Shown: positions 12,512 through 30,049 of the stretch, one piece after another
How the letters are laid out: every line of letters starts with the position of its first letter
Numbering within the stretch: the stretch's first letter is position 1
Assembly (NCBI GenBank): GCA_965226375.1
Contig: CBDDCX010000006.1
Coordinates: forward strand, 110,393 to 142,392
From: Longimicrobiales bacterium
Lineage (GTDB): Bacteria; Gemmatimonadota; Gemmatimonadetes; Longimicrobiales; Gaopeijiaceae
Length of the DNA stretch: 32,000 nt
Direction of reading: 5' to 3'
Program-made: the position numbers and the translations under genes
The notes under the pieces: generated by a model
Database searches by the model: none
What the model was told of the DNA's origin: nothing
What the model saw: the letters and a program-made list of their open reading frames with translations, nothing else

Positions 12512-12540
12512 CGCGCGATGGGTGAGGGGCTTGCCCGATC

Positions 12541-12574
12541 TATAGGGAATCGCTATATAGGGTGACACCCTATA
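12541..12574 (+). promoter_or_regulatory. Candidate PadR operator: 19-bp perfect palindrome plus an extra upstream half-site
   Basis: TATAGGGTG-a-CACCCTATA (12556-12574, 9-bp arms) lies 20 nt upstream of the padR ATG. A third TATAGGG half-site sits at 12541-12547. TATAGT (12571-12576) is a possible -10. Confidence 0.5.
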
Positions 12575-12593: not shown

Positions 12594-12938
12594 ATGGCAC
12601 AGAATCCAGAGCAGTTCATCCCGCTCACGCACGTGGCCTACCACGTGCTGCTCGCCCTCTCCGACCAGTCCAGGCACGGCTACGGCATCATCAAGCACGT
12701 GGAAGAGAGGACGAACGGTCGCTTGGAGTTGGAGGCAGGCACACTGTACGCCGCGATCAAGAGGCTGCGCGACGACGCGTTGATCTCCGACGCGAAGGCG
12801 CCTTCCGGAACCGACTCTCGGCGCCGCTACTACGGGCTGACTCCGTTCGGGCGGCGCGTCCTGGAGGCCGAGTCGCTCCGACTCGTCGAGCTCGTGGCGC
12901 TCGCACGCGATGCTCAGCTGATCCCCCCGGGCGTGTAG
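12594..12938 (+). CDS. PadR family transcriptional regulator (cassette 1, class A)
   Basis: 114 aa. HVLLALSDQSRHGYGIIKHVEERTNGRLELEAGTLYAAIKRLRDDALI...RRRYYGLTPFGRRVLEAE is a canonical PadR wHTH. Confidence 0.9.
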   Translation: MAQNPEQFIPLTHVAYHVLLALSDQSRHGYGIIKHVEERTNGRLELEAGTLYAAIKRLRDDALISDAKAPSGTDSRRRYYGLTPFGRRVLEAESLRLVELVALARDAQLIPPGV

Positions 12939-12945
12939 GCTACCG

Positions 12946-15639
12946 GTGTCACCGAAGAGCTACCGTCGACTGTTCTTTCTCCTGCCCTCGCGGTTCAGGG
13001 ACGAGTACGGTTCGGAGTTGGAGGAAGTGGTCGAGGATCGTTGGAACGTGGTCCGAGAGCGAGGCGGGGTCGCCGTGAGGATCCGATTCTGGGTAAGGGA
13101 AACTGTGGCGCTCACGCTGCTCGCGACCCGGTTGCGAGTGGGGCTGGAGCCGGCTTCGGCCGAGCGCACGACTACACGCATGAAGACGATGATGAGGAGG
13201 TGGGAGGTGAACGGTTTGGGACAGGACCTCGGACAAGCGGTCCGATCGCTACTCAAGGAACCGGGTTTCACTCTCGTGACGGTGCTTACACTCGGGCTCG
13301 GCGTCGGTGCCTCGACGGCGATCTTCAGCGCGGTCCACGCCGTGCTCTTCCGTGATCTGGCGTACGCCGACGCAGACCGGATCGTAGCCGTGTTTCATGC
13401 GGATACCGAAACGCGAGAGCTCTCAGTCGGCGCGTCGGCCACGAACATCAGGGACGTGGCCGAGTCGAGTAACCGACTCTCCGGGGCTGCCATAGCGGAG
13501 CCCTGGAGCCTCGACCTCTTCCTGGACGACCGCACCGAGTCGCTTCGCACATGGGCCGTGTCCACAGGGTTCTTCGAGATCCTCGGCGCGGCGCCCGCGC
13601 TCGGTCGCGCTTTCCGTCCCGACGAATACGTGGAAGGGAACGACAAGGTGGTCCTGCTGGGGCATCGCAGTTGGACGCAGCGCTTCGGCGCCGACCCTGC
13701 GATCGTGGGCCGGACCGTAACACTCGACAACGAGCCCTACACGGTCGTGGGTGTCCTTACCCGGGACTTCAAGTACCCCAACCAGGCAGCGGCATGGATT
13801 CCTCGGGCCCCTAATTCGCGGGACGACGGCTCCCGGGCCGCGGACTACATGTACGGTATCGGGCGACTCGCCGACGGAGCGACGATGTCGGACGCGCAGG
13901 CCGAAATGGATCGCCTGGCGCGCTCGCTCGAGGAAGCCTTTCCGGAGACGAACACCAACATCGGTATACAGTTGGTCCCGTTCCGGGAGCACCTCTTCGG
14001 AGACGTGCGTACACCGCTTTATGTGTTGTTGTCGGCGGTCGGGTTCGTGCTACTCATCGCATGCGCGAACGTTACGGGCCTGATGCTCGCTCGAGGAGCA
14101 AAGCGGGAGCGCGAGTACGCGCTCCGGAGCGCTCTTGGGGCCGGGCGAGCCCGCTTGGCCGGATATGTTGCGACCGAGAGCCTGCTCTTGGCAGCTGTCG
14201 GATGCGCGCTGGGCGTCGGGCTCACCTTCCTGGGGGTGCGTGTGATCCAGAGTCTCGGACCGGATCATCTGCCGCGCATCGACGAGCTTCGTGTCGATGG
14301 CACGGTCCTGACGTTCGCCCTGATCGTGGCGGGACTCAGCGCGTTTCTCTCCGGGTTGGCACCGGCCTTCAGACTCTCTCGCCCCGATTTGCGAGGTGCG
14401 CTGTCGGACGCCACTCGGGGCAGCACGGGCGGACGGAAGGCCAATCGACTGAGGAACCGGCTCGTCGTGGCCGAGGTTGCAGCCGCCCTGGTCCTGCTCA
14501 TCGGGGCCGGGCTCCTCACCAGGAGCTTCTCGATTCTGGTGAACGAGGAATTGGGCTTCGACCCGACGGACCGAGTCGCTATTCAGGTCTTCGCGTACGG
14601 GTATCCGGGTGAGGAGCTGATTCAGTTCGTGAACCAGACGATCGAGAACATGAACGCGATTCCCGGAGTGAGGGACGTGGCGATCACGTCGAACGTGCCC
14701 GGCGCGACGGACGGCGCGATCGCCTCGATCGACATCGACTTGCCTATGCGGATCGATGGGGTGGCTCCGCTGCCGACTGGTCAGGAGCCGGTCACCTGGA
14801 TTTCGCAGGTGTCGAAGAGCTATTTCAACGTGATGGGGATGCCGATGGTCGCGGGTCGCGGCTTCGATGACGGCGACCGTTCCGAGGCTCCGCCGGTCGT
14901 GATCGTCAATGAGGCCCTGGTCCGGCGCCATCTGGGCTATCGGGACGCGGTAGGACAGCGCATCGGCCTGCCTTGGGGCCCCGAGGCGGACCAGTGGAAG
15001 TGGCGTGAGATCGTGGGTGTCGTGAAGGACGTCCGTCCGCTGGGCTTCGAGTCGGAGCCGCGGCCCGAGGTCTTCTTCCCGATCACCCAGGCGGGCACAG
15101 GCAGCTTGACCTTCGTGCTCGCTTCCGATACGGACGCGGGCCCCATCGTGACCCAGGCGGCCGAGGCGGTCTGGCAGGCGAATCCGGCACAGGCCGTTTA
15201 TGGAGCTGCCACACTCGAGGCGCTACTGGCCGATTGGCTGCAGGAACGACAATTCAATGTGGTGCTCTTGTCGTCGTTCGCGCTGATCGCGCTGATGCTC
15301 TCGGCGGTGGGGATATACGGACTCGTCAGCTTTTCGATGGCACAGCGCGTCGGGGAGCTCGGAATCCGTAGGGCGCTCGGCGGCCAGACCCCCGACGTGC
15401 TCGGCATGGTGCTCCGGGAAGGAGCGAGGCTGGCCGGGGCAGGCGTGGTGCTGGGAGTCGTGGGCGCCTTGGTCCTCACCCGCTTCCTCGGCGGCATGCT
15501 TTGCGGCGTGGAGCCCACCGACTGGCCGACCTTCGGGCTGCTTGCTCTGGCGGTGCTCATGGTGTCGTCGTTGGCCACGCTCGTGCCGGCGATTCGCGCT
15601 ACGCGTGTGGATCCGATGGAGGCCCTCAGAGAGGGTTAG
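12946..15639 (+). CDS. Duplicated MacB/FtsX-type permease with N-terminal cytoplasmic prefix (ADOP-type orphan permease), cassette 1
   Basis: 897 aa, GTG start 7 nt after the padR stop. Prefix YRRLFFLLPSRFRDEYGSELEEVV. Then two units of TM + large periplasmic domain + 3 TM (IACANVTGLMLARGAKREREYALRSALGAGRARL; second unit MAQRVGELGIRRALGG), and the tail IRATRVDPMEALREG. Confidence 0.9.
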   Translation: MSPKSYRRLFFLLPSRFRDEYGSELEEVVEDRWNVVRERGGVAVRIRFWVRETVALTLLATRLRVGLEPASAERTTTRMKTMMRRWEVNGLGQDLGQAVRSLLKEPGFTLVTVLTLGLGVGASTAIFSAVHAVLFRDLAYADADRIVAVFHADTETRELSVGASATNIRDVAESSNRLSGAAIAEPWSLDLFLDDRTESLRTWAVSTGFFEILGAAPALGRAFRPDEYVEGNDKVVLLGHRSWTQRFGADPAIVGRTVTLDNEPYTVVGVLTRDFKYPNQAAAWIPRAPNSRDDGSRAADYMYGIGRLADGATMSDAQAEMDRLARSLEEAFPETNTNIGIQLVPFREHLFGDVRTPLYVLLSAVGFVLLIACANVTGLMLARGAKREREYALRSALGAGRARLAGYVATESLLLAAVGCALGVGLTFLGVRVIQSLGPDHLPRIDELRVDGTVLTFALIVAGLSAFLSGLAPAFRLSRPDLRGALSDATRGSTGGRKANRLRNRLVVAEVAAALVLLIGAGLLTRSFSILVNEELGFDPTDRVAIQVFAYGYPGEELIQFVNQTIENMNAIPGVRDVAITSNVPGATDGAIASIDIDLPMRIDGVAPLPTGQEPVTWISQVSKSYFNVMGMPMVAGRGFDDGDRSEAPPVVIVNEALVRRHLGYRDAVGQRIGLPWGPEADQWKWREIVGVVKDVRPLGFESEPRPEVFFPITQAGTGSLTFVLASDTDAGPIVTQAAEAVWQANPAQAVYGAATLEALLADWLQERQFNVVLLSSFALIALMLSAVGIYGLVSFSMAQRVGELGIRRALGGQTPDVLGMVLREGARLAGAGVVLGVVGALVLTRFLGGMLCGVEPTDWPTFGLLALAVLMVSSLATLVPAIRATRVDPMEALREG

Positions 15640-15670: not shown

Positions 15671-16066
15671 CTACCGTACCACGCAAACCTTCGCGCCGTG
15701 ACCGGGCGCGTCAGCGCTCCGACCATCACACGTGAGTAGCGGACAGTCGAGGGCCTCCGCGAGCGCAACGTAGGCGGCGTCGTACGCGCTCAAGTTGTCG
15801 CGCAGCATCCAGATGCGCGGGACGAGCATCCCAGCGGGGCGTCTTTCGACGGGTAGTGCCTGCAGTAGCTCCACAGCCCCGGTCGCCCTCGAATCCGAGA
15901 CGGCGCCCGACCGCGCCAAGCGTCGAAACGCCTGCACGACTTCGACGTCGAGTAGATCCGGGGCGAAGAATGCACCGTCCGGGTCGTCCAGCAACTGTGT
16001 TACCACGCCGTCACCACGCTCGCTTCCCAGTAGCCACTCCACCACGGCAGAGGCGTCCAAGACCAT
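15671..16066 (-). CDS. vapC: PIN-domain toxin VapC
   Basis: 131 aa from MVLDASAVVEWLLG. Acidic PIN residues are present (D4, E..., D..AYVALAEALDCPLLTCD). The start overlaps the vapB stop (TGATG, 1-nt overlap at 16066). The longer track ORF to 16324 is rejected. Confidence 0.85.
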   Translation of the reverse strand: MVLDASAVVEWLLGSERGDGVVTQLLDDPDGAFFAPDLLDVEVVQAFRRLARSGAVSDSRATGAVELLQALPVERRPAGMLVPRIWMLRDNLSAYDAAYVALAEALDCPLLTCDGRSADAPGHGAKVCVVR

Positions 16067-16296
16067 CACCGGGTGTCGCGATCCTCGCGGATGATTTCGG
16101 CGGCCGTTGGAGCACCGTACACCGGCCCCAATTCGTGAACACGTGCCACGACCTCGTCCACGCTCAGCCGTTGCAATTCCTTCTGCAGTGCTCGAAGTGC
16201 CAGATCGGACAGGGTCACCCCTTCCATGGCCGCCTTGGCCTTGGCTCGGCGGTGCAGGTCCTCCGGCACATTGCGGATTTGGATCATGATAGACAT
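16066..16296 (-). CDS. vapB: Ribbon-helix-helix antitoxin VapB (FitA/Arc-like)
   Basis: 76 aa. MSIMIQIRNVPEDLHRRAKAKAAMEGVTLSDLALRAL is a typical RHH antitoxin N-terminus. Translationally coupled to vapC. Confidence 0.8.
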   Translation of the reverse strand: MSIMIQIRNVPEDLHRRAKAKAAMEGVTLSDLALRALQKELQRLSVDEVVARVHELGPVYGAPTAAEIIREDRDTR

Positions 16297-16329
16297 GTGA
16301 AAAGCATGTTAGCATGTGTAGCACATGTC
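16292..16329 (-). promoter_or_regulatory. Candidate vapBC operator (CATGT-rich inverted repeats)
   Basis: GACATGTG (16292-16299) and CACATGTC (16322-16329) are inverted 8-mers, with two further CATGT copies between them. The region spans the vapB start codon and its immediate upstream sequence. Confidence 0.45.
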
Positions 16330-16463: not shown

Positions 16464-16511
16464 ATATCGCACTGCGAAGTGTCCAACCCCTCGATATCGC
16501 AATGCGAAGTG
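16464..16511 (+). promoter_or_regulatory. Two 18-bp direct repeats, each containing a TCGCA-n-TGCGA palindrome; candidate operator pair for cassette 2
   Basis: ATATCGCACTGCGAAGTG (16464-16481) and ATATCGCAATGCGAAGTG (16494-16511) are 17/18 identical, 30 bp centre to centre, and end 5 nt before the first possible permease start. Confidence 0.5.
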
Positions 16512-16515
16512 AGGA

Positions 16516-19131
16516 ATGGACCGATCGGGGAGACGAATGGATCGATCACCCAGGGGCATCTACAGGGCTCTACTCAGGGTCTATCCAGCCGCGTTCCGCC
16601 AACGCTTTGGCCAATCGATGGAGGTCGTCTTCGAGCGAGAGTGGAAGCGGGCTCGGATCGCGGGAACCCCGGCGGCGTTCGTGTTTTGGATCCGGCTCCT
16701 GGCGGATTCTTTCGTAAACGTTCCGCGCGAGTGGCTCGACGTCGCCGCGCACGAGGGGAAAGGGAGGGTGGGGATGATGCTCGAGAGTCTATGGCAGGAT
16801 CTTCGATACGGAATGCGGGGACTGGTGAGACGCCCTGCACTTACCTTGGTTTTGACCCTCACCCTGGGCCTCGGAATCGGGGGTGTGACGGCCATCCAAT
16901 CGGTGCTGCGTGGGACGCTGTTGCGGGAGCTTCCGTACGACGCGCCCGATCGAATCCACATGTTCTGGAATGCCGGTTCATGGGCTCCAAGTGATCTGGC
17001 GGTCCTCGAGGAAGGCAGCCCGACGCTCTCTCTGGTGGCCGCCTACACCGAGACCCAGGTCGTGGTACAGAACGAGTCCGGCCCCGCGTCGGCCGAGGAT
17101 GCCCTCCTTGTCTCCCACGACTTCTTCTCCGTGTTCGGTGTGGAGCTTCAAAGGGGACGCGACTTCGACGTATCGGACGAGGTCCGGGGAGCCCCGCCGG
17201 TCGCGGTGATCACCCATGGCCTGTGGGTCGAGCTGGGTCAGAGACCCGATATGGTCGGCTCGACGCTGCGGATAGACGGTCAGGGCGTCGAGATCGTCGG
17301 GATCACCGCACCGGAATTCTACTTCCCGGACGAAGCGACGAGGATGTTTCGGCCGATGCAGGTCGATCGCACGAGCCGTGATCGCTACCTCAGCCTGATC
17401 ACCCGAGTCTCGACAACGGCCACCCCCGAGACGCTCGCCGGCGAGGCGCAGCGCGTCGTGACGGTGCTCGGGCGGCAGATTGACAGTTTTTCCGATGCCG
17501 TTCGGCTGACACCGGTTCGGCGCGCCATCTTCGGCCGTAATCGCGAGCCGATGATCCTGGTCGGGGGAGCGCTGGCGCTCGTGCTGCTCATGGCCGTCAT
17601 CAACGTAGGGGGGTTGTTGCTCGGGCACACCGAGCGACGCAGGGGCGAGTTATCCCTTCGGGCGGCCATCGGCGCGAGTAGGAGTCGTCTCGCTCGCCAA
17701 CTCGTGACCGAGTCCACGATCATCGGCTTGTTGGGCGGTGGCGCCGCAGTGCTGTTCGGGCTGGTCGGCTTCAAGCTGCTGGTGGGCAGCCTGCCGATCT
17801 CACCGGGGGATGCCCAGGCACTCGAGATGGATCGGGTATTTCTGCTCTTCACGCTGCTCCTTGGTGTGGGGGTCGGGGCGGTTGTCGGTCTGATCGCAGC
17901 GCTCGGATCGTCCGCCAAGACACCGGGCGGGAGTCGCGGCACGACTACCGGCGCCTCCCGCTCAGCAGCGCTGACCCAGAACGCACTGGTCATAGCACAG
18001 GTCGCCCTTACCGTGCTGCTCGTCGGGGGAGCCGGCGTGATGGCGAGGAGCGTCGGCGAGCTCTCGATGATCGAGACCGGCCTCTCTCCCGGACAGGCCG
18101 TGGTCCTCGATGTCGTCGCCGGCGCCGGGGATTATCCTGCCTCCGAACGCGGAGAGCTGTACGCCAACCTTCGTGGATTGATCGGTGAGATGCCCCAAAC
18201 GGCCTCGGTCGGCTTGAGCCAGAAGCTCCCGCTGAGAGGGAGCGGGTGGACCACGTCGGTGGTGGCTCCGGGAGTGTTGGATGAGCCGATGTTCGTTCCG
18301 ATTCGGTTCGTCACGCCGGGATATTTCGAGGCATTGGGCGTGCCGCTCGCCTCCGGGCGCCTTCCCGACTCGTTCATCGACCGAGCCGATGGTGCTCCGG
18401 TGGCCTGGGTGAACCAAGCACTTGCCGAGAGGATTTGGCCCAGAGAGGATCCGGCCGGCCAGCGTTCGGTCACCGCTTGGGGAGCGAGCCGCCGCGTGGC
18501 GGGCGTAGTGGGTAACGTTTCGGAAGGGAATCTGACAGATGCGGTTCTCCCTGCGATCTACGTTCTGATCGAGCAACATCCGCGGTTTCTGAGTTTTGCG
18601 ATGGTCGCGCGACCCGTGCCCGGGGCGGGGCCGCAGTACCCGGCCCAGGTCGTGAACCTGTTGAGAGAGCGGGAGCCCCGCCTGGCCGTGAGGAGCGTCT
18701 CCACGTTTACCGAGGTCGAGCAGGCCGCTCAGGGGGACACGCTCATGATCATGCGACTGCTGATCCTGCTCGGTGTGTTGGCGCTCATCGTCGGCGCCGT
18801 CGGCGTGCACGGTGTCATCTCGCAGTGGGTCAGCGGGCGGATCCGAGGCTGGGCTGTAGCGCTCGCCCTGGGCGCCACCTCCGGGACTGTACTCCGGGAG
18901 GTGCTGATACGAAGCCTCTCGCTGACTGTGGCGGGCGTGGGTGCGGGGATCGTACTCTTCCTGATCGGCAGCTCTGCGCTCGAGTCCTTCCTGTTCGGCG
19001 TCGAGCGGACCGACCCGGTATCTCTCGGCGCCACAGCAGCCTTGATCGTCGCTACGGGAGTACTGGCGGCCGCAGCCCCCGCTCTCCGTGCCGTTCGCAC
19101 CGATCCCGTGACCCTGTTGAGGGGAGAATGA
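16516..19131 (+). CDS. Duplicated MacB/FtsX-type permease with N-terminal prefix (ADOP-type), cassette 2
   Basis: 871 aa. The alternative ATG at 16537 has a better-placed GGGGAG. Prefix YRALLRVYPAAFRQRFGQSMEVVF (class A). Two FtsX-like units and the tail LRAVRTDPVTLLRGE. Confidence 0.9.
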   Translation: MDRSGRRMDRSPRGIYRALLRVYPAAFRQRFGQSMEVVFEREWKRARIAGTPAAFVFWIRLLADSFVNVPREWLDVAAHEGKGRVGMMLESLWQDLRYGMRGLVRRPALTLVLTLTLGLGIGGVTAIQSVLRGTLLRELPYDAPDRIHMFWNAGSWAPSDLAVLEEGSPTLSLVAAYTETQVVVQNESGPASAEDALLVSHDFFSVFGVELQRGRDFDVSDEVRGAPPVAVITHGLWVELGQRPDMVGSTLRIDGQGVEIVGITAPEFYFPDEATRMFRPMQVDRTSRDRYLSLITRVSTTATPETLAGEAQRVVTVLGRQIDSFSDAVRLTPVRRAIFGRNREPMILVGGALALVLLMAVINVGGLLLGHTERRRGELSLRAAIGASRSRLARQLVTESTIIGLLGGGAAVLFGLVGFKLLVGSLPISPGDAQALEMDRVFLLFTLLLGVGVGAVVGLIAALGSSAKTPGGSRGTTTGASRSAALTQNALVIAQVALTVLLVGGAGVMARSVGELSMIETGLSPGQAVVLDVVAGAGDYPASERGELYANLRGLIGEMPQTASVGLSQKLPLRGSGWTTSVVAPGVLDEPMFVPIRFVTPGYFEALGVPLASGRLPDSFIDRADGAPVAWVNQALAERIWPREDPAGQRSVTAWGASRRVAGVVGNVSEGNLTDAVLPAIYVLIEQHPRFLSFAMVARPVPGAGPQYPAQVVNLLREREPRLAVRSVSTFTEVEQAAQGDTLMIMRLLILLGVLALIVGAVGVHGVISQWVSGRIRGWAVALALGATSGTVLREVLIRSLSLTVAGVGAGIVLFLIGSSALESFLFGVERTDPVSLGATAALIVATGVLAAAAPALRAVRTDPVTLLRGE

Positions 19132-19430
19132 CGCTCAATCGATCGTCCCTGCCATCCGCTCAGTTCCAGATCCTCCTGGCGCTAGCCGATGGCCCGAAGC
19201 CGGGCCATGTCATCAACGAAGACATGCGCGTGAGGAGTGACGGCCGGTTGGCGATGGGACCGGGTACGCTGTATGGCGGGCTCAAGCGCCTGCTTCGGCG
19301 GGGGTGGGTGACCGAGGCCGACGGCGTCTATCAGATCACCGCGGAGGGTGCTGCGGCCTGCGAGCGAGAGATCGCCCGCATGAGCGCGATCCTCGGGATC
19401 GCGGCGGCGAAGGGGCTGGCGGCGCGCTGA
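19128..19430 (+). CDS. PadR-like wHTH regulator located downstream of its permease (cassette 2, class A)
   Basis: 100 aa from MTLNRSSLPSAQFQILLALADGPKPGHVINEDMRVRSDGRLAMGPGTLYGGLKRLLRRGWV. The ATG overlaps the permease TGA (ATGA at 19128-19131). This is only the distal part of track ORF 18825-19430. Confidence 0.8.
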   Translation: MTLNRSSLPSAQFQILLALADGPKPGHVINEDMRVRSDGRLAMGPGTLYGGLKRLLRRGWVTEADGVYQITAEGAAACEREIARMSAILGIAAAKGLAAR

Positions 19431-20538: not shown

Positions 20539-23214
20539 TTACTCCTCCCGCATCGCGTCGATCAGATCGCAGCGAGCGGCCTGCCTGGCCGGCAGGTAGC
20601 AACCCGCAAACGCCACGGCTGCGAGCGTCACGCACGCCCCAATGAACGTTCGCGGGTCCGTCGCACTTACACCGTAGAGCTGGCCCTGAAGAAAACGGGT
20701 GAGCCCGAGCGCCAACATCACCCCCAAGACGAGGCCGGCCACGGCGGCCGTCATCCCTTGGCGCAGGATCAGTTTGGTCACTCGCGAACCGGTAGCACCC
20801 AAGGCGAGCCGTATGCCCATCTCCCGGCGGCGCTGCGAGACGGTGTACGAGAGGACGCTGAAGATCCCGACGGCGGAGAGCACGAGCGCGAGCACGCTCA
20901 GCGTGCCCAGGAGCATCGCACCGGTACGGCGGTTCGCGCTTGCGGACGTGAGCAGATCGTCCAGCGTGTTGACGAGGTAGATCGGAAGTCCGGTCGCCTC
21001 GAAGACTTCACGGCGGAGAATAGGGATCATCTGCTCCGGGTCAGCCGTTGTTCGAACTGTGAGGGTCCGGGGCCGCGTGTCGTCGATCTCGTAATAGTTC
21101 TGGAGATCGGGCTCGAGATCCAGCCCGCCAAGCCGTACGTCCTCGACCACACCGATGATCCGAATCGGGTTCCCACCATTGATGAGGCGCTGGCCGACCG
21201 GATCCGAGTCGGGCCAGTAGCGTTCGGCGAGCGTCTCATTGATGAGAGCAACGATCTCAGGAGCGGTGTGGTCCTCTGGTAGAAACGAACGACCCCGGAT
21301 GAGACGTGATCCGACCGTGGAGAAGTAGTGCATATCGACGCCCTTGAGCAGTGCGCGTGGCGCCTGTCCTTCCGGAAACGGGTCGCGGCCTTCGATCCCC
21401 AGCAGCGAGGAGAAGGGACTCGTCAGTGGGTTGGAGAAGGAGCTCGCGGCGGAGACCACGCCCGGTACCGAACGCAGCCGCTCCGTCAGGTCGTTGTACA
21501 TGCCCCGGATCTCGGCGTCATCTGGAAAACGATTCTCCGTGATGTTCATCTCGAACGTCAGCAGGTTTTCCGGATCGACGCCGGTATCCACATTGAGTAG
21601 CCCCACCAAGCTCTGGATCATCAGACCGGCCCCCACCAGGAGCACGACCGACAGGGCGAACTGACCCACCGAGAGCAGGTTGCGACCGTGGCGGCCAGCT
21701 CCGCCCGACGTCACGCCGAGGGAATTTCTACCCAGCATGCCGTGTACGCTGGTGCGCACGACCTGGAAGGCAGGGGGTGCTCCGACGAGCACGGCGCCGA
21801 GAGACCCCACTACGCCTGTGAACGCCAGGACCCTCCAGTTTAGGGCGACCTCTTGGGCCAAGGGCGCCCCCTCGAACCAGATACCCACAAGGATCTGGAT
21901 GCCCAACCATCCCGTGCCGACTCCCAGCCCCACGGCCAGGCCGGTGATCAGCAGGGCCTCGCCAATCGCCATGCGGAATAGGCGTCCGCGTCCCGCACCG
22001 ATCGCGGCGCGCACCGTGAACTCCTTGCTGCGCGTCGTGGCGCGAGCCAGCCCGAGCGCAGCCACGTTGGCCGTTGCGATGAGCATTACCAGACCCACGG
22101 CCCCCAGAAGAGCGAGCAGCAAGGCAGCCGAGTCGCCCCCAAAGCGCTCGCCCAGCGGGACGATCGCCACACCCCTGGACGTGCCGTGCTCCTCATTGAG
22201 CCGCACCACGATCGCGCTCAGCTCTTCGAGCGCCGCGGTCGGACCCACACCGGGAGCAACCCGGACGGCCACGTCGAGCCAGTGGTTGGCGCGGCCACTC
22301 CAGAAGGGTACTCGCTCGATAGGCCGCCAGATATCGGTGGGGTCCGTCCGATCGAGGAGTCGGTTCGCTGTGAGATCTCCCGCGTGGGGCGCGGCGACCC
22401 CGACGACCTCGTGTGCCTCGTAATCCAGCACGATGGTGCTGCCGATCATGTCGGGATCGGCCTCGAATCGATTCACCCAGAGCCGGTAGCTCATCACCGC
22501 CACGGGCGACGCGTCGTCCAGGTGCTCCACCGGTGAGAAGAATCTCCCCAGGAAGGGCTGCGCGCCCACTAGGTCGAAATAGTCGCGGCTGACGAGTCCG
22601 CCTGGGAGCCAGTCCGCCCGGTTGCCCTGGCTCAACGTGACACCGCCCTCCTCGAACGCGACCATGCGCTCGAACAGTGTGCTGCGCTCTCGCCAATCGA
22701 GGAACTCCGCCCAACTGACTCGTCCGTAGTCGCCGGTCACCGGTGCGGTCTCGTAGACCTCGTAGGTGCGATCCGCATCGGGGATGGGCAGGGCGCGCAA
22801 CACGAACGTGTCCACCATCGAGAAGACCGCAGTGTTCGCACCGATCGCCAGCGCCAACGTCAAGACCGATACGCCGGCGAAGGCCGGACTCCGCAGTAGC
22901 GCTCGAGCCGCAAATCTCAAATCGTCAACGCAGGCCATCATCCCTCTCCCGTCCAAGTTCCTATGCCGCGTTTGTCGTACGGTGTGCCGAAGTGCCAACA
23001 GGTGCCAAGGGGCCAGTTCAGCCAGGAGTCGCCGCCGGGCCCGGACGAGTCCGAGACGCTCCACGTCGCGCCGGTAGGCCGATTCGATGTCCGTCATCAC
23101 CACGGCTCGGACGTGCTCGGGAATCACGAGGCGAAGGAGCAGGTGAACCCACCGAGGGAGCGGACTGGCGTGTTTCGTGCCTTTGCTGCTGTCCTGCGGG
23201 CCAGAGGTCCTCAT
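20539..23214 (-). CDS. Duplicated MacB/FtsX-type permease with N-terminal prefix (ADOP-type), cassette 3
   Basis: 891 aa from MRTSGPQDSS. The ATG overlaps the upstream PadR-fragment stop (ATGA at 23211-23214). Class B prefix LPRWVHLLLRLVIPEHVRAVVMTDIESAYRRD. Tail RQAARCDLIDAMREE. Confidence 0.9.
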   Translation of the reverse strand: MRTSGPQDSSKGTKHASPLPRWVHLLLRLVIPEHVRAVVMTDIESAYRRDVERLGLVRARRRLLAELAPWHLLALRHTVRQTRHRNLDGRGMMACVDDLRFAARALLRSPAFAGVSVLTLALAIGANTAVFSMVDTFVLRALPIPDADRTYEVYETAPVTGDYGRVSWAEFLDWRERSTLFERMVAFEEGGVTLSQGNRADWLPGGLVSRDYFDLVGAQPFLGRFFSPVEHLDDASPVAVMSYRLWVNRFEADPDMIGSTIVLDYEAHEVVGVAAPHAGDLTANRLLDRTDPTDIWRPIERVPFWSGRANHWLDVAVRVAPGVGPTAALEELSAIVVRLNEEHGTSRGVAIVPLGERFGGDSAALLLALLGAVGLVMLIATANVAALGLARATTRSKEFTVRAAIGAGRGRLFRMAIGEALLITGLAVGLGVGTGWLGIQILVGIWFEGAPLAQEVALNWRVLAFTGVVGSLGAVLVGAPPAFQVVRTSVHGMLGRNSLGVTSGGAGRHGRNLLSVGQFALSVVLLVGAGLMIQSLVGLLNVDTGVDPENLLTFEMNITENRFPDDAEIRGMYNDLTERLRSVPGVVSAASSFSNPLTSPFSSLLGIEGRDPFPEGQAPRALLKGVDMHYFSTVGSRLIRGRSFLPEDHTAPEIVALINETLAERYWPDSDPVGQRLINGGNPIRIIGVVEDVRLGGLDLEPDLQNYYEIDDTRPRTLTVRTTADPEQMIPILRREVFEATGLPIYLVNTLDDLLTSASANRRTGAMLLGTLSVLALVLSAVGIFSVLSYTVSQRRREMGIRLALGATGSRVTKLILRQGMTAAVAGLVLGVMLALGLTRFLQGQLYGVSATDPRTFIGACVTLAAVAFAGCYLPARQAARCDLIDAMREE

Positions 23215-23396
23215 CGCGTGGCTCCGTCCGCAGCAGAGGGCATGCCCTCCCACATGCGTTCCCACTGACGGCGCACCTCTTCCAGGGCCTCGTCACCCGC
23301 CTCGGTTATGCGGAAGTGACGTCTGGCTTTTCCGCCTCGGACCGGGGTCGGATCACCGAGCTGCGAGCTGAGGAATCCTTTTGTTTCCAGCCGCAT
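23211..23396 (-). pseudogene. PadR family regulator, C-terminal fragment only (5'-truncated), cassette 3
   Basis: RLETKGFLSSQLGDPTPVRGGKARRHFRITEAGDEALEEVRRQWERMWEG aligns with residues ~53-103 of the intact PadR at 29640-29975 (RMERKGLIRSDVGSPTPERGGRAKRFYELRPPGLEALVDARETLARFWEK). Residues upstream of 23396 in the track ORF are the antisense of the neighbouring permease remnant. The N-terminal helices of the wHTH are absent. Confidence 0.75.
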
Positions 23397-25045
23397 GGGA
23401 GTCCCTGGTAGGAAACGTCCGGCCGGCGCTGCTGATGTTGATGGGAGCGGTGGGCCTGGTCCTCCTGATAGTCTGCGCCAACGTGGCGAATCTCCTATTG
23501 GCGCGGACGGCGGCACGTGATCGTGAGGTAGCAGTTCGCATCGCTCTGGGAGCCGGGCGCTTACGACTCGTCCGGCAGCTTCTCACCGAGAGCGTGCTGC
23601 TGGCAGTGGTGGGCGGGTTGGCGGGAGTCGGGTTGGCGTATGGCGGTCTACGTGTCATCCTCGCCTTGGCGCCATCCCAAGCCGTCCCCCGGGTCACCGA
23701 GATCAGCATGGACGGCCGAATCCTTGCGGTCATGGCCGCCGTGACGTTGGCCACTGCCGTACTGTTCGGTCTGGTTCCCGCGCTCAAGAGATCACGCTCG
23801 CGTTTGGCCCACACCATGAAGGAGGGCACTCGGGGCATGCGGGCTATGCCGGGTGGACGCCGTCGGGGATCTCTCGTGGTGTTGGAGACGGCGGTGGCCA
23901 TGGTGCTCGTCGTCGCGTCGGGCCTGCTCATCCGGAGCTTCGCGGCCGTCCAGTCGGTCGATCCGGGGTTCGATCCGGACGGTCTTTGGGAGATCTCACT
24001 CTCGTTACCGTTTACCCAATATCCGAGCGAGCGCTGGCCCGAGGTGGAGACGTTCTTTGATCAGGTCACGCGCCGGACGCGTGAAATGCCGGGTGTCCGT
24101 GACGCCGCTATTGCGTACGCGGGTCCGACGAACCCGAGTTGGACGATTGGCTTTTGGGTCGACGGGCGCCCGGAACCCGCCGGAAACGTGCGGCCCGAGG
24201 CACAATACCGCCCGGTCTCTCCAGGCTACTTCCGGACCGCAGGCATCCCCCTCGTACGTGGTCGTGATTTCACCGACCTCGACGATTCGAAGTCCACGGG
24301 TGTGGTGATCGTGAATCAGGCGTTCGCCGACCAGCACTTTCCCGGCGAGGACCCCATCGGCCAGGTACTACTGATCGGCAGCTGGTGGGAGGATATCGCG
24401 ATCGCCCGCTGGGAGGTTGTCGGGCTGGCGCCGAACGTCCGCTATTTCGGTCGTGAGTCCGAGACGCTCCCGGGTTACTACTTTCCCCACGCTCAGCGCC
24501 CCATGACGGACATGGTGCTCCTGGTACGGGTCGACGGCGACATTGCCGATGTGTTGCCGTTGATTCGCCAGGAGGTCTGGAGTTTCGACGGGAGCGTGCC
24601 GGTGGAGAGAGTCTCGCCGAGCGAGCAGGCCCTGGTAACCTCGGTGGCCGGTCGGCGCTTCAACACGATCCTTCTGGGCGTCTTCGGCGGAGTGGCTCTG
24701 CTGCTGGCGGCCGTCGGTCTGTACGGCGTTCTGTCCTACACGGTGTCCCAGAGGACCCATGAGATGGGAGTGCGGGTGTCCTTGGGTGCTCAGCCCGCAG
24801 ATGTCCGACGACTGGTGGTCATGCAGGGGCTTAGACTCGCCCTCGGGGGCCTCGCGCTGGGCCTCGTTGCGGCCTTCGGATTCAGTCGCCTCGCGTCGTC
24901 CCTCCTGTTCGGGGTCACGGAGGGTGACCCGGTCACGTTGGCGACCGTCTCTGGTCTGCTGATCGGGGTCGCGGTTCTGGCCAGTTACCTCCCGGCGCGT
25001 CGGGCCACACGGATCGATCCCGTGACGGCATTGAGAGCGGACTAG
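23396..25045 (+). pseudogene. ADOP-type permease, 5'-truncated remnant (about 330 N-terminal codons missing), cassette 4
   Basis: Homology begins abruptly at (W)ESLVGNVRPALLMLMGAVGLVLLIVCANVANLLLARTAARDREVAVRIALGAGRLRL. In the intact paralogs this segment lies about 330-350 aa from the N-terminus. There is no prefix, TM1, first periplasmic domain, credible start or RBS. The 3' part is intact to the tail RRATRIDPVTALRAD. Confidence 0.8.
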
Positions 25046-25207: not shown

Positions 25208-25714
25208 GTGGACGCTGACTGGGCAGAGCTCTACCGAACGACGCTGCCGGATCTGGTTCGCTTTCTGCACCGCAAGGTGTGGGATTTGGAGCGTGCCAAG
25301 GACCTGGCACAGGAGACGTTCGTCCGGGCGTTACGGGAGCAACCGGACAAGCCCCGCGCGTGGCTTTTTACGGTTGCGGCCAACCTGGCCCGTGACGAGG
25401 CGCGAACCGCCATACGGCGCAAGAAACACCTCACGCTACTCAAGTCCGAGGCGGAAGTGCGTGGGCCGGCCCCCGATCCGCAGGCGGAGCTCGAACGGGG
25501 GGAGCGCGAGGCGGAGGTGCGGAGGGCTCTGGAGTCCCTGGGGGAGAGAGACCGTGAGGCCCTTCTCCTGTGGGATGCGGGGCAGAACTACGAAGACATC
25601 GCAGAGGCGCTGGACCTGGCGGTGGGCGCGGTGGGAACCACGCTCGCCCGTGCCCGGCAGCGGCTCGTGAAGGCGCATGGAGACTTGGAGCAATCAGATG
25701 TCGCACGTCGGTAA
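25208..25714 (+). CDS. ECF-type RNA polymerase sigma factor (sigma-70 family)
   Basis: 168 aa, GTG start with GAGGA 4 nt upstream. Region 2: DLAQETFVRALREQPDKPRAWLFTVAANLARDE. Region 4: REALLLWDAGQNYEDIAEALDLAVGAVGTTLARARQRL. Confidence 0.9.
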   Translation: MDADWAELYRTTLPDLVRFLHRKVWDLERAKDLAQETFVRALREQPDKPRAWLFTVAANLARDEARTAIRRKKHLTLLKSEAEVRGPAPDPQAELERGEREAEVRRALESLGERDREALLLWDAGQNYEDIAEALDLAVGAVGTTLARARQRLVKAHGDLEQSDVARR

Positions 25715-26915
25715 GGGAGATATCCACGCCTACCTCGACGGCGCCCTGGGCGCCTATCCCGAGGGTGAGGCCAATCGCGTGGGACAGCACCTGGACGAGT
25801 GCGAGGCGTGCGCTCGATCCTTGGATGAAGAGCGAGAGCTCCGTATGGTCGCGTCGGAAATTCTGGCCGCTACGGCCGAGGCTCCCATGGACCTGGCACC
25901 GTTCGAAGAACTGGTGGCAGGGGCGGACGAGGCAGAGTCGACCCGCCCGTCCGGCGGGACGTCGAAGTTCAGGGTGCTCCGCATGGCCGCCACGGTGGTG
26001 ATTTCCCTCGGTGCCGGATGGATGGCCCATGATCTGACCGGACCCGGCAGCGAACTGGCAACCGCGCCTGCGCTCGACGCGGTGCGAACCCAGGAGGGCG
26101 TTCCGTCGCGAGCTGACGAGGCCCTGAATCCGTTCCAGGCCGAGCCCGAACTCAGGCAGGCCGATCAGGGCGACTTTACCGCCCAGGTTGCGTCACCCGT
26201 GCAGTCGCAGGACCTCGACGCCGAGGCGGTGCCACCCATTGCCTGTGCGGCACTCTCCGACGTGGTAATAGCGCCGACCGACGCGCCGGCCGCCGCGGTC
26301 CCCATGGAGTCCGCCGATGAGGTTGAGGCCGGACGGCGCGACGCGGTCGGCGGCGCTCTCCGGTTGGATCAGCAGCGAGCGTCCGAGGCAGCGCCCCAAG
26401 CGGCCGGACCAGCCGCTCCCCTGGAGCGGAGAAGGCGCGAGGCGGTCGACCCGACCAGCGTCATGGACAACCGAGCTGTCACGGGAGTGGCCAGAGGCGT
26501 GGCTGCCTCCGTCCTGGCGGAGGATGTCACGAAGTCCAATCAGGATGAGCTGTTCGCGGACAATGCCAACGCGATGAGTCTCAATGAAATGTCAGTCACC
26601 GGGCGCACGAGCTCCTTCGTCATCCCAGGCCTCTCGATCCGGGACGTCCGGTTCGGGGGAGGCGCCGAGGGTTTCGATTCTGCGGTGACGATCATTCAGG
26701 AGCTCCCGGACGGGCGCGTCGTGGAGTTGCGCTTCGTACCCACCCTGGCGGAGCGAGACACATCGAGGGACGCTGAGGGGATCCCCGTCGCACGCCTCCC
26801 GGACGGGTGGAACCAGGTCGTTCGAGAACTCCTGGATGGTCTGGCTATTCTCCGCGGCCCGCTCGGTGAAGCCGAGTTATCCGAACTACTCGACCAGGCG
26901 CTCGCCCGGCGCTGA
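25698..26915 (+). CDS. Anti-sigma factor (zf-HC2 type), single-pass membrane protein with Ala/Pro-rich linker and uncharacterised C-terminal domain
   Basis: Start at MSHVGKGDIHAYLDGAL (GGAG 7 nt upstream), overlapping the sigma gene by 17 nt. H-x3-C-x2-C motif HLDECEAC. TM segment MAATVVISLGAGWMA. Confidence 0.75.
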   Translation: MSHVGKGDIHAYLDGALGAYPEGEANRVGQHLDECEACARSLDEERELRMVASEILAATAEAPMDLAPFEELVAGADEAESTRPSGGTSKFRVLRMAATVVISLGAGWMAHDLTGPGSELATAPALDAVRTQEGVPSRADEALNPFQAEPELRQADQGDFTAQVASPVQSQDLDAEAVPPIACAALSDVVIAPTDAPAAAVPMESADEVEAGRRDAVGGALRLDQQRASEAAPQAAGPAAPLERRRREAVDPTSVMDNRAVTGVARGVAASVLAEDVTKSNQDELFADNANAMSLNEMSVTGRTSSFVIPGLSIRDVRFGGGAEGFDSAVTIIQELPDGRVVELRFVPTLAERDTSRDAEGIPVARLPDGWNQVVRELLDGLAILRGPLGEAELSELLDQALARR

Positions 26916-26961: not shown

Positions 26962-29643
26962 TTACTTTTTCCGCATGGCTGACATGGGATCGACCCGAGT
27001 GGCGCGGAACGCCGGGATGTAGTTGGCCACCAGCGCCACCACCATCAGGGCCGCCGGCACACCGATGAACGTCACCGGATCTCGGGGGCTTATGCCGACC
27101 ACCATGCTCTCCAGGACGGGACTCAGCAGGAGCGCTCCGACGATTCCGACCGCGGCTCCGGCGGTCATCAGCGTCCCGCCCTTGTAAAGCACCATGCGCA
27201 GCACGTCCCCTCGCTGGGCACCGAGTGCCATCCGCAGGCTGATCTCGGCCTTTCTCTCCGAGACCATATACGACATCACTCCGTAGATCCCCAGGCCCGC
27301 CATGACCAGCGCGAACACAGCGAAGGTCATCGCCAAAGTCAGGAGGGCGAGGCTGAACGACGAGCTATCGTATTTGTATTGCTCCATGGTGCGGACGTCG
27401 TCGACCGGTTGTGCCGGATCCACGGACCGGACGGCGTTCTTGATGCCGGCCAGGGCCTCCGTGGGCTCGCCGCGGGTGCGCGCGAGTAGTACCATGCGCC
27501 TCCGTGGCGTCTGCGAGAGTGGCAGGTAGATCTGCGGCACGTGCTCGATCGACGGACCGGGTCCGTACTCGGTCCCGCCTGCGATGCCGACGATGGTCAA
27601 CCAGTCCTCCGACTCGGAGCTGGCGGGAAGGATCCGCTGCCCGATGGGGTTTTCACCGGGCCAGTACTTTTCCGCGGCGGCAAGGCTGACGATCACTACA
27701 GGCGGTGCCTCGCCATTGTCCTGGAGTTCGAGACTCCGTCCCCTGAGCAGCGGCACCCGCAGCACGTCGAGGTAGTCCCGGCTGATCACGGTCTCGACCG
27801 CCCGCGGCTGGTCCCGCTCGTCGACCACCGGCCTTCCCTCGATTTCGAACCGTGATCCTTGGGATGTGACGCCGGGCCGCGTGTTCACCAGAGCGATGCC
27901 TTCCACGTCGGGGAGGGCGACGGCTGTGGCCAGCAGTTCGTCGAAGAACTGTCGAGCCCGCTGGTCCTCGGCGTAACCGGACTCGGGCAAGTCCACGACC
28001 ATGGACAGCACACCCGTGCCCTCGTATCCACGGTCGATCGTCTGGATCAGCAGGTTGGTTCGTGTAGACACGCCGGCCACCACCATGAGAATGAGGGCCA
28101 GGGCCATCTGCGAGATCACGAGTGCCCCCCGGAGGCGACCCCCCTTGCGGCCGCTCGCTCCCAAGACCCCGCCATCCTTCAGCGTGGCGCTGACGTCGGT
28201 GCGACTGCCCCGCAAGGCCGGAATCAATCCGAAGATGACGGGTGCCGCCAAGGTTACGATCAGGGGGAACGTCAGTACGTGGCGGTCGATTATGGCCGTC
28301 GTGAACAGCGCCTCCCGCCCGCGGGTGATCGCCACCAGCAGGCGCATCAGGCCATGGGCCATGGCCAAGCCCATCACCCCCGCCGACGTGGCCACGAGTA
28401 CGCTCTCGGTCAGCAGTTGGCGGATGATACGGAGCCTGCTGGCACCAAGGGCCACGCGCACCGCCAACTCACGGCTACGGCCCGGGGACCGCGCGAGGAG
28501 CATGTTGGCCACGTTGGCGCAGGCGATCATGAGCACGAACCCGCCCGTCAGTCCCAACAGGAGCAGGATCGCGGGAAGCTCATCGCCCAGCAGCAGGGTC
28601 CGCGTGTCCACCACGTGCATATTCCAGTTGCCGTTGGTTTCCGGATAGAGCTCCGAGAGGTGCTCACCCAGGGCGGTTATGTCCTCGTCGGCTTGCTCGA
28701 CCGTGACGCCCGGCAGGAGCCGCCCCGACACCAGGAGGGTTCTTGCTTCCCGATCGCCACCTGTCTCCGGTTCGTCGAGGGGCAGCCAAAGCCTTGCGAG
28801 GCCGAGGCTCGCGAACTCCATGCGCGACGATACGACCCCAACGATCGTGTGTTGGCTTCCGTCTATGCGAAGCGTCTGACCGAGGACGTCGGGATCGCCT
28901 CCGAAGCGTTCCTCCCAGAACCCGTAGGAAAGCAGAACGACGGGTGCCGCTCCGGGCCGATCCTCCCCCGGCAGAAAGTCGCGACCCAACGCCATCGGGA
29001 CTCTCCAGTTGCCCAAGAAGTTGTCGGTGGCTTTGTGGATCGCCACTCGCTCGGGCTCGTCGCCACCCGTGAGAATGGCGTTCTCCATCATGAGCCCCGA
29101 GAGGCCTTCGAAGCTGCGTTGGTCCCGCCGAAGGTCCACCAGATCCTGGAAGCTTACTCCCTCTTGGAACTGGCCGGTGGCGGCATCGTTCATCGACAAG
29201 AACCCGAGCGTCTCGTCGTCCTGCATTGGCAGGTCCTGGAACGCCACGATGTTGACCAGGCTGAAAATCGCCGTGTTCACGCCGATGGCGAGAGCCAGGG
29301 CGAGTGCGGAGATGACCGCGTAGCCGGGGCTCTTCTTTAGGCTACGAAGGCCGTATCCGATATCCTGCCACAGGGTCTCCATCAGTAGACCGCCCTCCCT
29401 GGAGCGAGACGAGCGTTCGCGAAACCGGAGCGTGAGGTTGGACTTGAACGACGACAGGACCTGTCGGCGGTACCAGCGGCGAGCCGTAACAACACCCTCG
29501 GCGTCTGCCAGGGTCCGGAACTCCTCGGCCAGGTCGCCGACTTGGTTGTCGCGATACCGACCGGGCAGGATCAGCGAGAGGATAACGCGGGCGAGCCTGG
29601 GTGGACTCGCTGGCGGGGGTGACCGATGCTTCCGGGTGTTCAT
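26962..29643 (-). CDS. Duplicated MacB/FtsX-type permease with N-terminal prefix (ADOP-type), cassette 5
   Basis: 893 aa. Class B prefix PPRLARVILSLILPGRYRDNQVGDLAEEFRTL. IACANVANMLLARSPGRSRELAVRVALGASRLRI; second unit ERKAEISLRMALGAQRGD; tail FRATRVDPMSAMRKK. The ATG overlaps the padR stop (ATGA at 29640-29643). Confidence 0.9.
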   Translation of the reverse strand: MNTRKHRSPPPASPPRLARVILSLILPGRYRDNQVGDLAEEFRTLADAEGVVTARRWYRRQVLSSFKSNLTLRFRERSSRSREGGLLMETLWQDIGYGLRSLKKSPGYAVISALALALAIGVNTAIFSLVNIVAFQDLPMQDDETLGFLSMNDAATGQFQEGVSFQDLVDLRRDQRSFEGLSGLMMENAILTGGDEPERVAIHKATDNFLGNWRVPMALGRDFLPGEDRPGAAPVVLLSYGFWEERFGGDPDVLGQTLRIDGSQHTIVGVVSSRMEFASLGLARLWLPLDEPETGGDREARTLLVSGRLLPGVTVEQADEDITALGEHLSELYPETNGNWNMHVVDTRTLLLGDELPAILLLLGLTGGFVLMIACANVANMLLARSPGRSRELAVRVALGASRLRIIRQLLTESVLVATSAGVMGLAMAHGLMRLLVAITRGREALFTTAIIDRHVLTFPLIVTLAAPVIFGLIPALRGSRTDVSATLKDGGVLGASGRKGGRLRGALVISQMALALILMVVAGVSTRTNLLIQTIDRGYEGTGVLSMVVDLPESGYAEDQRARQFFDELLATAVALPDVEGIALVNTRPGVTSQGSRFEIEGRPVVDERDQPRAVETVISRDYLDVLRVPLLRGRSLELQDNGEAPPVVIVSLAAAEKYWPGENPIGQRILPASSESEDWLTIVGIAGGTEYGPGPSIEHVPQIYLPLSQTPRRRMVLLARTRGEPTEALAGIKNAVRSVDPAQPVDDVRTMEQYKYDSSSFSLALLTLAMTFAVFALVMAGLGIYGVMSYMVSERKAEISLRMALGAQRGDVLRMVLYKGGTLMTAGAAVGIVGALLLSPVLESMVVGISPRDPVTFIGVPAALMVVALVANYIPAFRATRVDPMSAMRKK

Positions 29644-29975
29644 AGCAGCCCCTCCGGATCCAGCTCCAGCTTCTCCCAGAAGCGGGCCAGGGTCTCACGG
29701 GCGTCAACCAGCGCCTCCAGCCCCGGGGGGCGGAGTTCGTAGAAGCGCTTTGCGCGGCCTCCGCGCTCTGGGGTCGGGCTGCCCACGTCCGATCGGATGA
29801 GCCCTTTGCGCTCCATGCGGTCGAGGGCGGCGTAGACTGATCCGATGGATACGGGTCGCTCGGATCGCTCCTCGATCTCGTTACGGATGGCCACCCCGTA
29901 GGCGCCCGCTTTCAAACGTGCCACGGCCAGGAGTGTGATCTGCTCGAACTCGCCGAGAAAGGCGCTGTGAGGCAT
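29640..29975 (-). CDS. PadR family transcriptional regulator (cassette 5, class B; Acidobacterial-type PadR)
   Basis: 111 aa. FEQITLLAVARLKAGAYGVAIRNEIEERSERPVSIGSVYAALDRMERKGLIRSDVGSPTPERGGRAKRFYELRPPG. Confidence 0.9.
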   Translation of the reverse strand: MPHSAFLGEFEQITLLAVARLKAGAYGVAIRNEIEERSERPVSIGSVYAALDRMERKGLIRSDVGSPTPERGGRAKRFYELRPPGLEALVDARETLARFWEKLELDPEGLL

Positions 29976-30022: not shown

Positions 30023-30049
30023 TACGGGAGTGTCGACGAAAGAGTTTCA
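30023..30049 (-). promoter_or_regulatory. Candidate ECF-type promoter upstream of padR-permease cassette 5
   Basis: On the minus strand: TGAAAC (30049-30044), 17 nt, CGTA (30026-30023), about 48 nt upstream of the padR ATG. It resembles the TGAAAC-N16-CGTA class of ECF promoters. This is a motif match only. Confidence 0.2.

Follow-up and report, generated by a model that had tools for sequence, protein, structure and literature searches.

The window analyzed here, a 32,000-nt stretch of a Longimicrobiales contig, encodes at positions 26962-29975 of the minus strand a PadR-family regulator (pad4) and a large permease of the ADOP family (perm4), which together make up one of several such cassettes in this DNA. 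The permease carries, ahead of its duplicated membrane body, an N-terminal helical domain of about 90 amino acids (aa), henceforth the prefix. Taken together, the sequence comparisons indicate that PadR is tied to this prefix and not to the permease body, given that co-occurrence, co-variation and modularity all agree.

Across Acidobacteriota, Gemmatimonadota, Verrucomicrobiota and further phyla, 80 ADOP-bearing genome loci were searched with purpose-built hidden Markov models for ADOP cores and PadRs, and co-occurrence was assessed for the 99 full-length ADOPs with at least 700 nt of upstream sequence. Among the 33 prefixed ADOPs, 26 have a same-strand PadR gene directly upstream, compared with 1 of the 66 scored as unprefixed (Fisher p=2e-16). 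That lone gene (locus L015) has an unclustered extension resembling class C of the prefixes described below. Among the seven prefixed ADOPs that lack an upstream PadR, four occupy the second permease position in a PadR-ADOP-ADOP array, and another is perm2 of the window, which has a PadR directly downstream.

The ADOP prefixes sort into two superclasses. Superclass I consists of prefix_2 (class B; LLPxxYRDxxLGDLEEEF...ARRWYWRQ), to which the prefixes of perm3 and perm4 belong, and of a sister class, class C (YRxLLxLxPxxFRxxYGxE), which is represented by the prefixes of perm1 and perm2; superclass II comprises the 'ELDEELRFHLE...G.S.EEA' type and the perm_prefix_1 type. Class-specific co-variation of prefix and PadR, proposed in the original prediction for this DNA, was borne out both in the window and across 32 PadR-prefix pairs, in 31 of which the nearest-neighbour PadR is of the same prefix class. 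Similarity of the ADOP cores is 36-38% within and 34.5-36% between classes.

The prefix is also modular. A profile search of 1.84 billion proteins detected prefix_2 in 8121 of them, and not all are ADOPs: P0121 consists of two copies of the prefix plus a transmembrane (TM) helix pair, and in P0155 the prefix is joined to a TM region and then to a C-terminal domain. The genes for both of these membrane proteins have a class-B PadR immediately upstream, with a 4-nt overlap in one case and a 2-nt gap in the other, and altogether such a PadR directly precedes 9 of the 10 prefix_2 genes examined, these two included.

P0121 belongs to a family of proteins of ~300-340 aa, along with P0133, P0135 and P0146 (L086 3001-4023), that are built from two tandem units of prefix_2 and a TM-helix pair; the L086 gene follows a class-B PadR with a 4-nt overlap. 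Two other proteins, P0175 and P0182, were considered as PadR-prefix-ADOP fusions and rejected, given that their PadR is garbled in its second half, as fits a frameshift across the 4-nt overlap; they most likely reflect frameshift read-through in error-prone assemblies.

The genes of the cassettes in the window, in order of position, are the following:

12594-12938 (+), pad1: 114-aa PadR, class C; Pfam PadR, 70.6 bits
12946-15639 (+), perm1: 897-aa ADOP with a class-C prefix and a GTG start; TIGR03434, 823.9 bits
16516-19131 (+), perm2: 871-aa divergent ADOP with a class-C prefix; TIGR03434, 553.7 bits, under the cutoff
19128-19430 (+), pad2: 100-aa PadR, class C, 3' of perm2; Pfam PadR, 30.5 bits
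20539-23214 (-), perm3: 891-aa ADOP with a class-B prefix; TIGR03434, 761.5 bits
23211-23397 (-), pad3 remnant: 3' half of a class-B padR
23381-25045 (+), adop5: 5'-truncated fifth ADOP; Pfam FtsX twice and MacB_PCD
26962-29643 (-), perm4: 893-aa ADOP; TIGR03434, 813.4 bits over residues 91-892
29374-29643 (-), perm4 prefix: aa 1-90, with an NF038404 match at aa 14-67 (nt 29443-29604)
29640-29975 (-), pad4: 111-aa PadR winged helix-turn-helix (HTH) protein, class B; Pfam PadR, 42.7 bits

Each cassette is best explained as an operon of two genes, one for an ADOP-family permease and the other for a short repressor of the PadR family. The minus-strand genes pad4 and perm4 share ATGA at 29640-29643, the sequence reading ...CTG CTA TGA at the end of pad4 and ATG AAC at the beginning of perm4, and a GGAGG Shine-Dalgarno motif lies inside pad4, 7 nt 5' of the perm4 ATG. 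An ATGA at 23211-23214 is likewise common to pad3 and perm3. In cassette 2 the order is permease, then PadR, and the perm2 stop and pad2 start codons overlap in ATGA 19128-19131; upstream, perm2 has no PadR, its neighbour there being a VapBC pair on the opposite strand. In cassette 1, the TAG stop codon of pad1 (12936-12938) is followed after a gap of 7 nt by the GTG of perm1 at 12946. The three overlaps and the gap had been part of the original prediction and all read correctly from the sequence. Its further claim of tight 1:1 coupling stands as far as co-transcription and possible translational coupling are concerned, but an ATGA overlap, the commonest operon junction, indicates operon organisation and does not establish a 1:1 stoichiometry. 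Of the four padR genes that it cited, pad1, pad2 and pad4 are PadR genes and the one of cassette 3 is a truncated remnant. The 4-nt overlap is kept in every close relative of perm4 examined (three L081 cassettes, L087, L088 and L089). The spacing was compared in 28 PadR-ADOP pairs, 25 from the diverse genome loci and 3 from the window: in 22 the two genes are within 15 nt of each other, and in 11 there is an overlap, of 1, 4 or 8 nt.

The identity of the permeases is clear from profile searches: perm1, perm3 and perm4 score above the TIGR03434 cutoff for ADOPs (622.3 bits) and share with the catalogued ADOP-PadR pair the duplicated chain, the lack of a neighbouring ATPase gene and the presence of a PadR gene next to the permease; perm2 differs in scoring below the cutoff. 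All four of these large open reading frames (ORFs) contain two MacB_PCD and two FtsX stretches per chain according to Pfam. In perm4 the ADOP profile match opens at residue 91, leaving the N-terminal prefix over, and the full-length AlphaFold2 model (predicted local distance difference test score, pLDDT, 81.8) shows eight TM helices and, in order, the prefix, a linker, an elbow helix and then two modules, each made of a TM helix, a periplasmic domain and three TM helices. Two structural claims made earlier were thus confirmed, namely that a helical prefix occupies the place where MacB carries its nucleotide-binding domain (NBD), as seen from the profile boundary and the three-helix model of the prefix, and that the duplicated TM/periplasmic module forms a covalent pseudo-dimer, as seen from the paired Pfam domains and the two 4-TM modules.

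The closest solved fold to perm4 is E. coli YbbP in 9ge6 (E=1.9e-18), with further matches to MacB, Spr0694-0695, LolCDE and BceAB; a search with perm4 yielded more than 7900 relatives, the named ones coming from Longimicrobiales/Gemmatimonadota, which fits a source of the window in this group rather than in Acidobacteria. YbbP of E. coli YbbAP is a single-chain duplicated type VII ABC (ATP-binding cassette) permease (PMC12646458). The perm4 protein resembles the YbbP component of YbbAP-TesA in being a duplicated MacB-type permease in a single chain, and shares MacB-like periplasmic cores and 4-TM modules with both YbbAP and MacB. However, YbbP pairs with the ATPase YbbA, whereas the partner gene of perm4 encodes a transcription factor and no ATPase gene is near, and MacB has a fused N-terminal NBD where perm4 has the 90-aa helical domain instead. 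No NBD was found in the perm4 chain by TIGR03434 and Pfam scans or in the AlphaFold2 model, and the 32-kb window contains no ORF in which Walker A and LSGGQ motifs occur together. Elsewhere, an ATPase-like ORF is adjacent to none of 35 prefixed ADOPs compared with 9 of 76 unprefixed ones, a marginal difference (p=0.055). The unprefixed ADOPs with an adjoining ABC-ATPase-like ORF on the same strand are in L002, L005, L016, L019, L023, L030, L043 and L049; given these 9 of 76, the name 'orphan' does not fit all ADOPs. For the prefixed permeases of the window, we infer that no ATPase partner gene exists elsewhere in the genome.

The prefix of perm4 matches NF038404 (permease prefix domain 2, cutoff 35 bits) with 35.5 bits when scanned alone and 30.9 bits within the full protein; the perm3 prefix scores 29.3 bits, under the cutoff, and no library model matched the prefixes of perm1 and perm2. 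AlphaFold2 predicts helices at residues 16-25, 28-49 and 51-80 of perm4, with a low-confidence linker at 80-86; the pLDDT of residues 16-80 is 73 when the prefix is modelled alone and 83-88 in the full-length model. The conserved prefix_2 motif reads LLPxxYRDxxLGDLxExF...ARRWYWRQ, and conservation in a 41-sequence alignment is seen at P15, P27, R31, G36-D37-L38, E40, A54, W57, Q61 and S65. Both the ADOP and PadR gene pair and permease prefix domain 2 are already catalogued in TIGRFAMs/NCBIfam; the descriptions of TIGR03434 and TIGR03433 mention the PadR neighbourhood.

A domain with a comparable genomic setting is HAAS, the HTH-associated alpha-helical signalling domain, which was defined by Ravi et al. 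(mSystems 2024; PMC11237479). These authors proposed that the HAAS-PadR dyad takes the place of a two-component system, such that HAAS, driven by a fused membrane sensor, changes shape and PadR is released or reconfigured; the architectures that they list include HAAS fused with 'FtsX-like TM domains with MacB/PCD domains' (PMC11237479), and ACP_2125 / ACO32024.1 is an example of the dyad. The model of a relay from prefix to PadR is therefore not new: it coincides with this published computational prediction, and given that the HAAS-PadR paper lists the same architecture, the hypothesis raised for this DNA restates it. The likeness extends to the three helices of the perm4 prefix, to its coupling to a stand-alone PadR and fusion to varied membrane modules, and to the proposed mechanism, which would be the same. 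What the present comparison adds is a sharper form of the published prediction, in which PadR follows the prefix and not the permease, with a separate PadR clade for every prefix class.

Experimentally studied relatives come from Listeria, where LstR and LltR are PadR repressors that autoregulate operons with HAAS/DUF1700 membrane proteins (PMC6624303), and derepression of LftR in response to aurantimycin depends on LftS (DUF1048). In LltR-Lmo0600, LstR-Lmo0421 and LftR-LftS, as in the window, a PadR repressor is co-transcribed with a partner, there of the HAAS superfamily; unlike the window cassettes, these are systems of Firmicutes in which the membrane modules are different or the partner is soluble. 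A literature search found no experimental work on ADOP, PadR or FtsX in Acidobacteria. BceAB, which is among the fold matches of perm4, offers another parallel. The BceAB-BceS system employs a MacB-type permease as the sensor for a partner that controls transcription, like the proposed cassette, but relies on an ATPase and a histidine kinase with its response regulator, unlike the directly coupled PadR here.

We lean, without strong conviction, towards a signalling model in which the cytoplasmic three-helix prefix of ~90 aa partners the cognate PadR according to the same logic as in the HAAS-PadR 'alternative two-component system'. Under this model, a PadR dimer would occupy an operator at its own promoter and keep the operon repressed; the periplasmic domains of the MacB core would react to an envelope-located ligand or to a membrane perturbation; the long TM helices would pass the change inward, like the mechanotransmission of MacB in reverse; and the prefix would then alter its hold on PadR, by capture or by release, and so change transcription. 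Here the physical binding of prefix and PadR, the direction of the switch, autoregulation and the signal itself are all what we infer. The earlier-known model is strengthened by the comparative data, given that co-occurrence and co-variation agree with it.

Several observations weigh against this model or against its link to HAAS. The counts are phylogenetically non-independent, and classes B and C contribute 4 and 6 of the PadR-prefix pairs, several of them from one contig; in addition, one prefix_2 ADOP, in L083, is without a PadR. A search of the pad4 promoter with 6-nt seeds revealed no inverted repeat, so that autoregulation of cassette 4 is unsupported; a weak TTC...GAA symmetry seen there by eye is not claimed as an operator. 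The ATPase scan covers the 32-kb window, and an ATPase encoded in trans would be beyond its reach. With respect to HAAS, no matches to HAAS (PF22564) were obtained for any of the 41 prefix_2 and class-C members at E<=10. The hhalign comparison of superclasses I and II is not significant (E=0.02-0.06, probability 1-2.5%), the prefix_2 profile matches no PDB sequence, 2O3L included, and a Foldseek search of PDB with the prefix model gave no significant match, the best being region 2 of sigma-E at E=3.1.

The relationship between the window prefixes and HAAS accordingly has two sides. Three consecutive helices stand at the N-terminus before the elbow helix and TM1, which is the HAAS core layout, and members of superclass II, which includes the perm_prefix_1 type, show weak matches to Pfam HAAS (10 of 33, best E 1.7e-4). 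The prefix_2 and class-C sequences differ in having no detectable similarity to Pfam HAAS, and the GxP kink motif of HAAS is not evident among conserved positions of the 41-sequence alignment, helix 3 being modelled as continuous. By sequence, the window prefixes thus represent a class not detectably related to HAAS; prefix_2 appears HAAS-like by context and by its three helices, and its membership in HAAS is unproven, given that the sequence, PDB and Foldseek searches returned no significant match. It is possible, although doubtful, that prefix_2 and its class-C sister constitute a PadR-docking family separate from HAAS, or one too diverged for profiles to connect with it, and that the prefixed ADOPs would in that case be ATPase-less transmembrane receptors derived from MacB and not transporters.

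The foremost alternative is a conventional local repressor and its pump, where PadR would be the direct sensor of a small molecule, like LmrR and LadR, and would repress the adjacent efflux or transport permease. The prefix would then have a role unrelated to PadR, such as oligomerisation, anchoring at the membrane surface or gating, and its co-variation with PadR would come about only via duplication and co-inheritance of whole cassettes. This is a familiar arrangement: PadR repressors are common beside the efflux genes that they control, e.g. LadR-mdrL, operon overlap is generic, the prefix-PadR interaction is a putative one, and the cassettes did multiply as units, with five in the contig and three in L081. 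We nevertheless consider it unlikely. PadR adjacency tracks the prefix (26/33 against 1/66), a pattern that a simple 'local repressor of a pump' does not predict; the same PadR subfamily is found beside prefix_2 on unrelated membrane modules; and PadRs partition by prefix class whereas the cores do not, although under whole-cassette co-inheritance alone the cores should partition too.

Two further explanations give the permease or the prefix a different partner. The resemblance to YbbP of YbbAP, and then to MacB, LolCDE and BceAB, is compatible with ADOPs being the membrane part of a true type VII ABC transporter with an ATPase encoded elsewhere, as YbbA is for YbbP; PadR signalling, if any, would then report transport, in the manner of flux sensing by BceAB-BceS. 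The 9 unprefixed ADOPs that adjoin an ATPase-like ORF fit this explanation, but the prefixed ADOPs have none adjacent and there is none in the window; we regard it as quite improbable, the marginal p value of the comparison notwithstanding. Still far less probable, in our estimation, is that the prefix works in the manner of an anti-sigma domain by sequestering an extracytoplasmic function (ECF) sigma factor, with PadR as a bystander regulator. This possibility is raised by an ECF-type promoter motif upstream of class-B cassettes and by ECF sigma genes located 1.2 kb from perm4 and near an L081 cassette; the layout of the perm4 prefix, moreover, resembles that of anti-sigma factors, in which a short helical domain at the N-terminus precedes a TM helix. 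However, relatives of the sigma factor of the window were detected by phmmer only in its own contig and in L081 and in none of the 80 genome loci, PadR is the invariant neighbour, and neither Pfam nor PDB gave a match of the prefix to a known anti-sigma family. Given that ECF sigma genes are not general neighbours of the cassettes, the anti-sigma explanation was rejected.

The question of prefix function extends well beyond this contig, given that in Acidobacteriota and Gemmatimonadota of soil few gene families have expanded as much as the ADOP permeases. If the prefix tethers or reconfigures PadR, as in the signalling model that we prefer, the cassettes would amount to a very large group of transmembrane devices that signal in a single step on a transporter scaffold, and would help to explain how soil members of both phyla sense envelope-active compounds. 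On the more doubtful view of the prefixed ADOPs as receptors, they and their PadRs, with thousands of paralogues, would be one of the largest unrecognised one-step envelope-to-transcription repertoires of Gemmatimonadota and Acidobacteriota, and class-B receptor cassettes would be layered under ECF-sigma promoters. The one contig supplies both cognate and non-cognate PadR-prefix pairs.

The regulatory DNA of the two prefix classes yielded the following candidates in the window:

30023-30049 (-): candidate ECF-sigma-type promoter, TGAAAC-N17-CGTA, ~50 nt 5' of the pad4 ATG
12556-12574 (+): perfect 9-1-9 palindrome TATAGGGTG-A-CACCCTATA, candidate PadR operator of cassette 1

In the five aligned upstream regions of class-B padR genes, both blocks of the promoter motif are at matching positions and CCCGTAG is invariant; the window has two matches to TGAAAC-N16-18-CGTA compared with 0.24 expected. 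This pattern fits the consensus of ECF-sigma (sigma-W-like) promoters. Transcription of class-B cassettes, including that at 26962-29975, probably also depends on an ECF-type sigma factor. The motif occurs at equivalent positions in L081 (3593-3618), L088 (402-427), L089 (824-848) and L083 (9924-9949), in the last of these 5' of the prefix_2 ADOP that has no PadR. In the window, the ECF sigma gene (Sigma70_r2/r4_2; 25208-25714, plus strand) overlaps a 412-aa ORF (25677-26915, plus strand) that has no Pfam match and might encode an anti-sigma factor; the two genes are convergent with perm4.

The class-C palindromes are perfect, 19 bp long and of the form TATA...N...TATA, and lie ~20-50 nt upstream of padR. 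That of cassette 1 is accompanied by an additional half-site at 12540-12547. The public contig L084 has one in the same format (17695-17713) ahead of a class-C PadR gene (padX). Such palindromes are plausible PadR operators. A further element, an 18-nt direct repeat ATATCGCA[C/A]TGCGAAGTG, occurs at 16464-16481 and 16494-16511 (plus strand) just upstream of perm2; TCGCA-N-TGCGA forms a palindrome within each copy, and the copy at 16494-16511 overlaps the ribosome-binding site of perm2.

Among the PadR proteins, pad4, pad1 and pad2 pass the gathering threshold of Pfam PadR (PF03551, 27 bits), and the pad3 remnant, at 20.3 bits, is below it. All are far under the 101.8-bit cutoff of TIGR03433, with scores of 39.4 (pad4), 66.3 (pad1) and 33.9 bits (pad2), and by this measure the window PadRs belong to subfamilies other than that acidobacterial paralog family. 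The class-B protein pad4 is of the short PadR type with a single C-terminal helix, and the solved structure nearest to it is the PadR-family regulator 5dym; pad2 and pad1, both of class C, share 28.7% identity.

The state of cassette 3 becomes clear from comparison with a public metagenome contig. The perm4 protein is 100% identical to one encoded on this 64,070-bp ENA contig, ena:ERZ28669063:ctg9467 (L084), and the window is a 99.7-99.9% variant of it but lacks 1783 bp (L084 16248-18030), the junction being at window position 23397|23398. The segment that is absent from the window contains the 5' half of pad3, a divergent intergenic/promoter region, the 122-aa padX and the 5' third of the fifth ADOP; the microhomology at the junction is just 1-3 nt, and the difference could reflect either a natural strain variant or the assembly. 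Given this absence, pad3, which is intact in the public contig (112 aa), is reduced in the window to a remnant without its HTH: the ORF at 23211-23516 retains the wing and the C-terminal helix and has lost the HTH half, and the alignment to pad3 is limited to pad4 residues 53-103, at 23241-23393. For the same reason adop5, whose 5' part and own PadR lie in the missing 1783 bp, is 5'-truncated, corresponding to residues ~340-895 of a full ADOP in tblastn comparison with other ADOPs. In the public contig, the fifth ADOP is split by a 1-nt indel (L084 ~15954) into genes of 562 and 319 aa; the window copy lacks this indel along with its own 5' end. Either the fifth ADOP is decaying or the indel is a long-read error.

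Cassettes 1 and 2 are separated by a VapBC-type toxin-antitoxin pair (15671-16320, minus strand) that consists of a PIN-domain protein and a FitA-like ribbon-helix-helix protein. Toxin-antitoxin genes (PIN, HipA_C and PemK) are also found near ADOP genes in L082 and L083.

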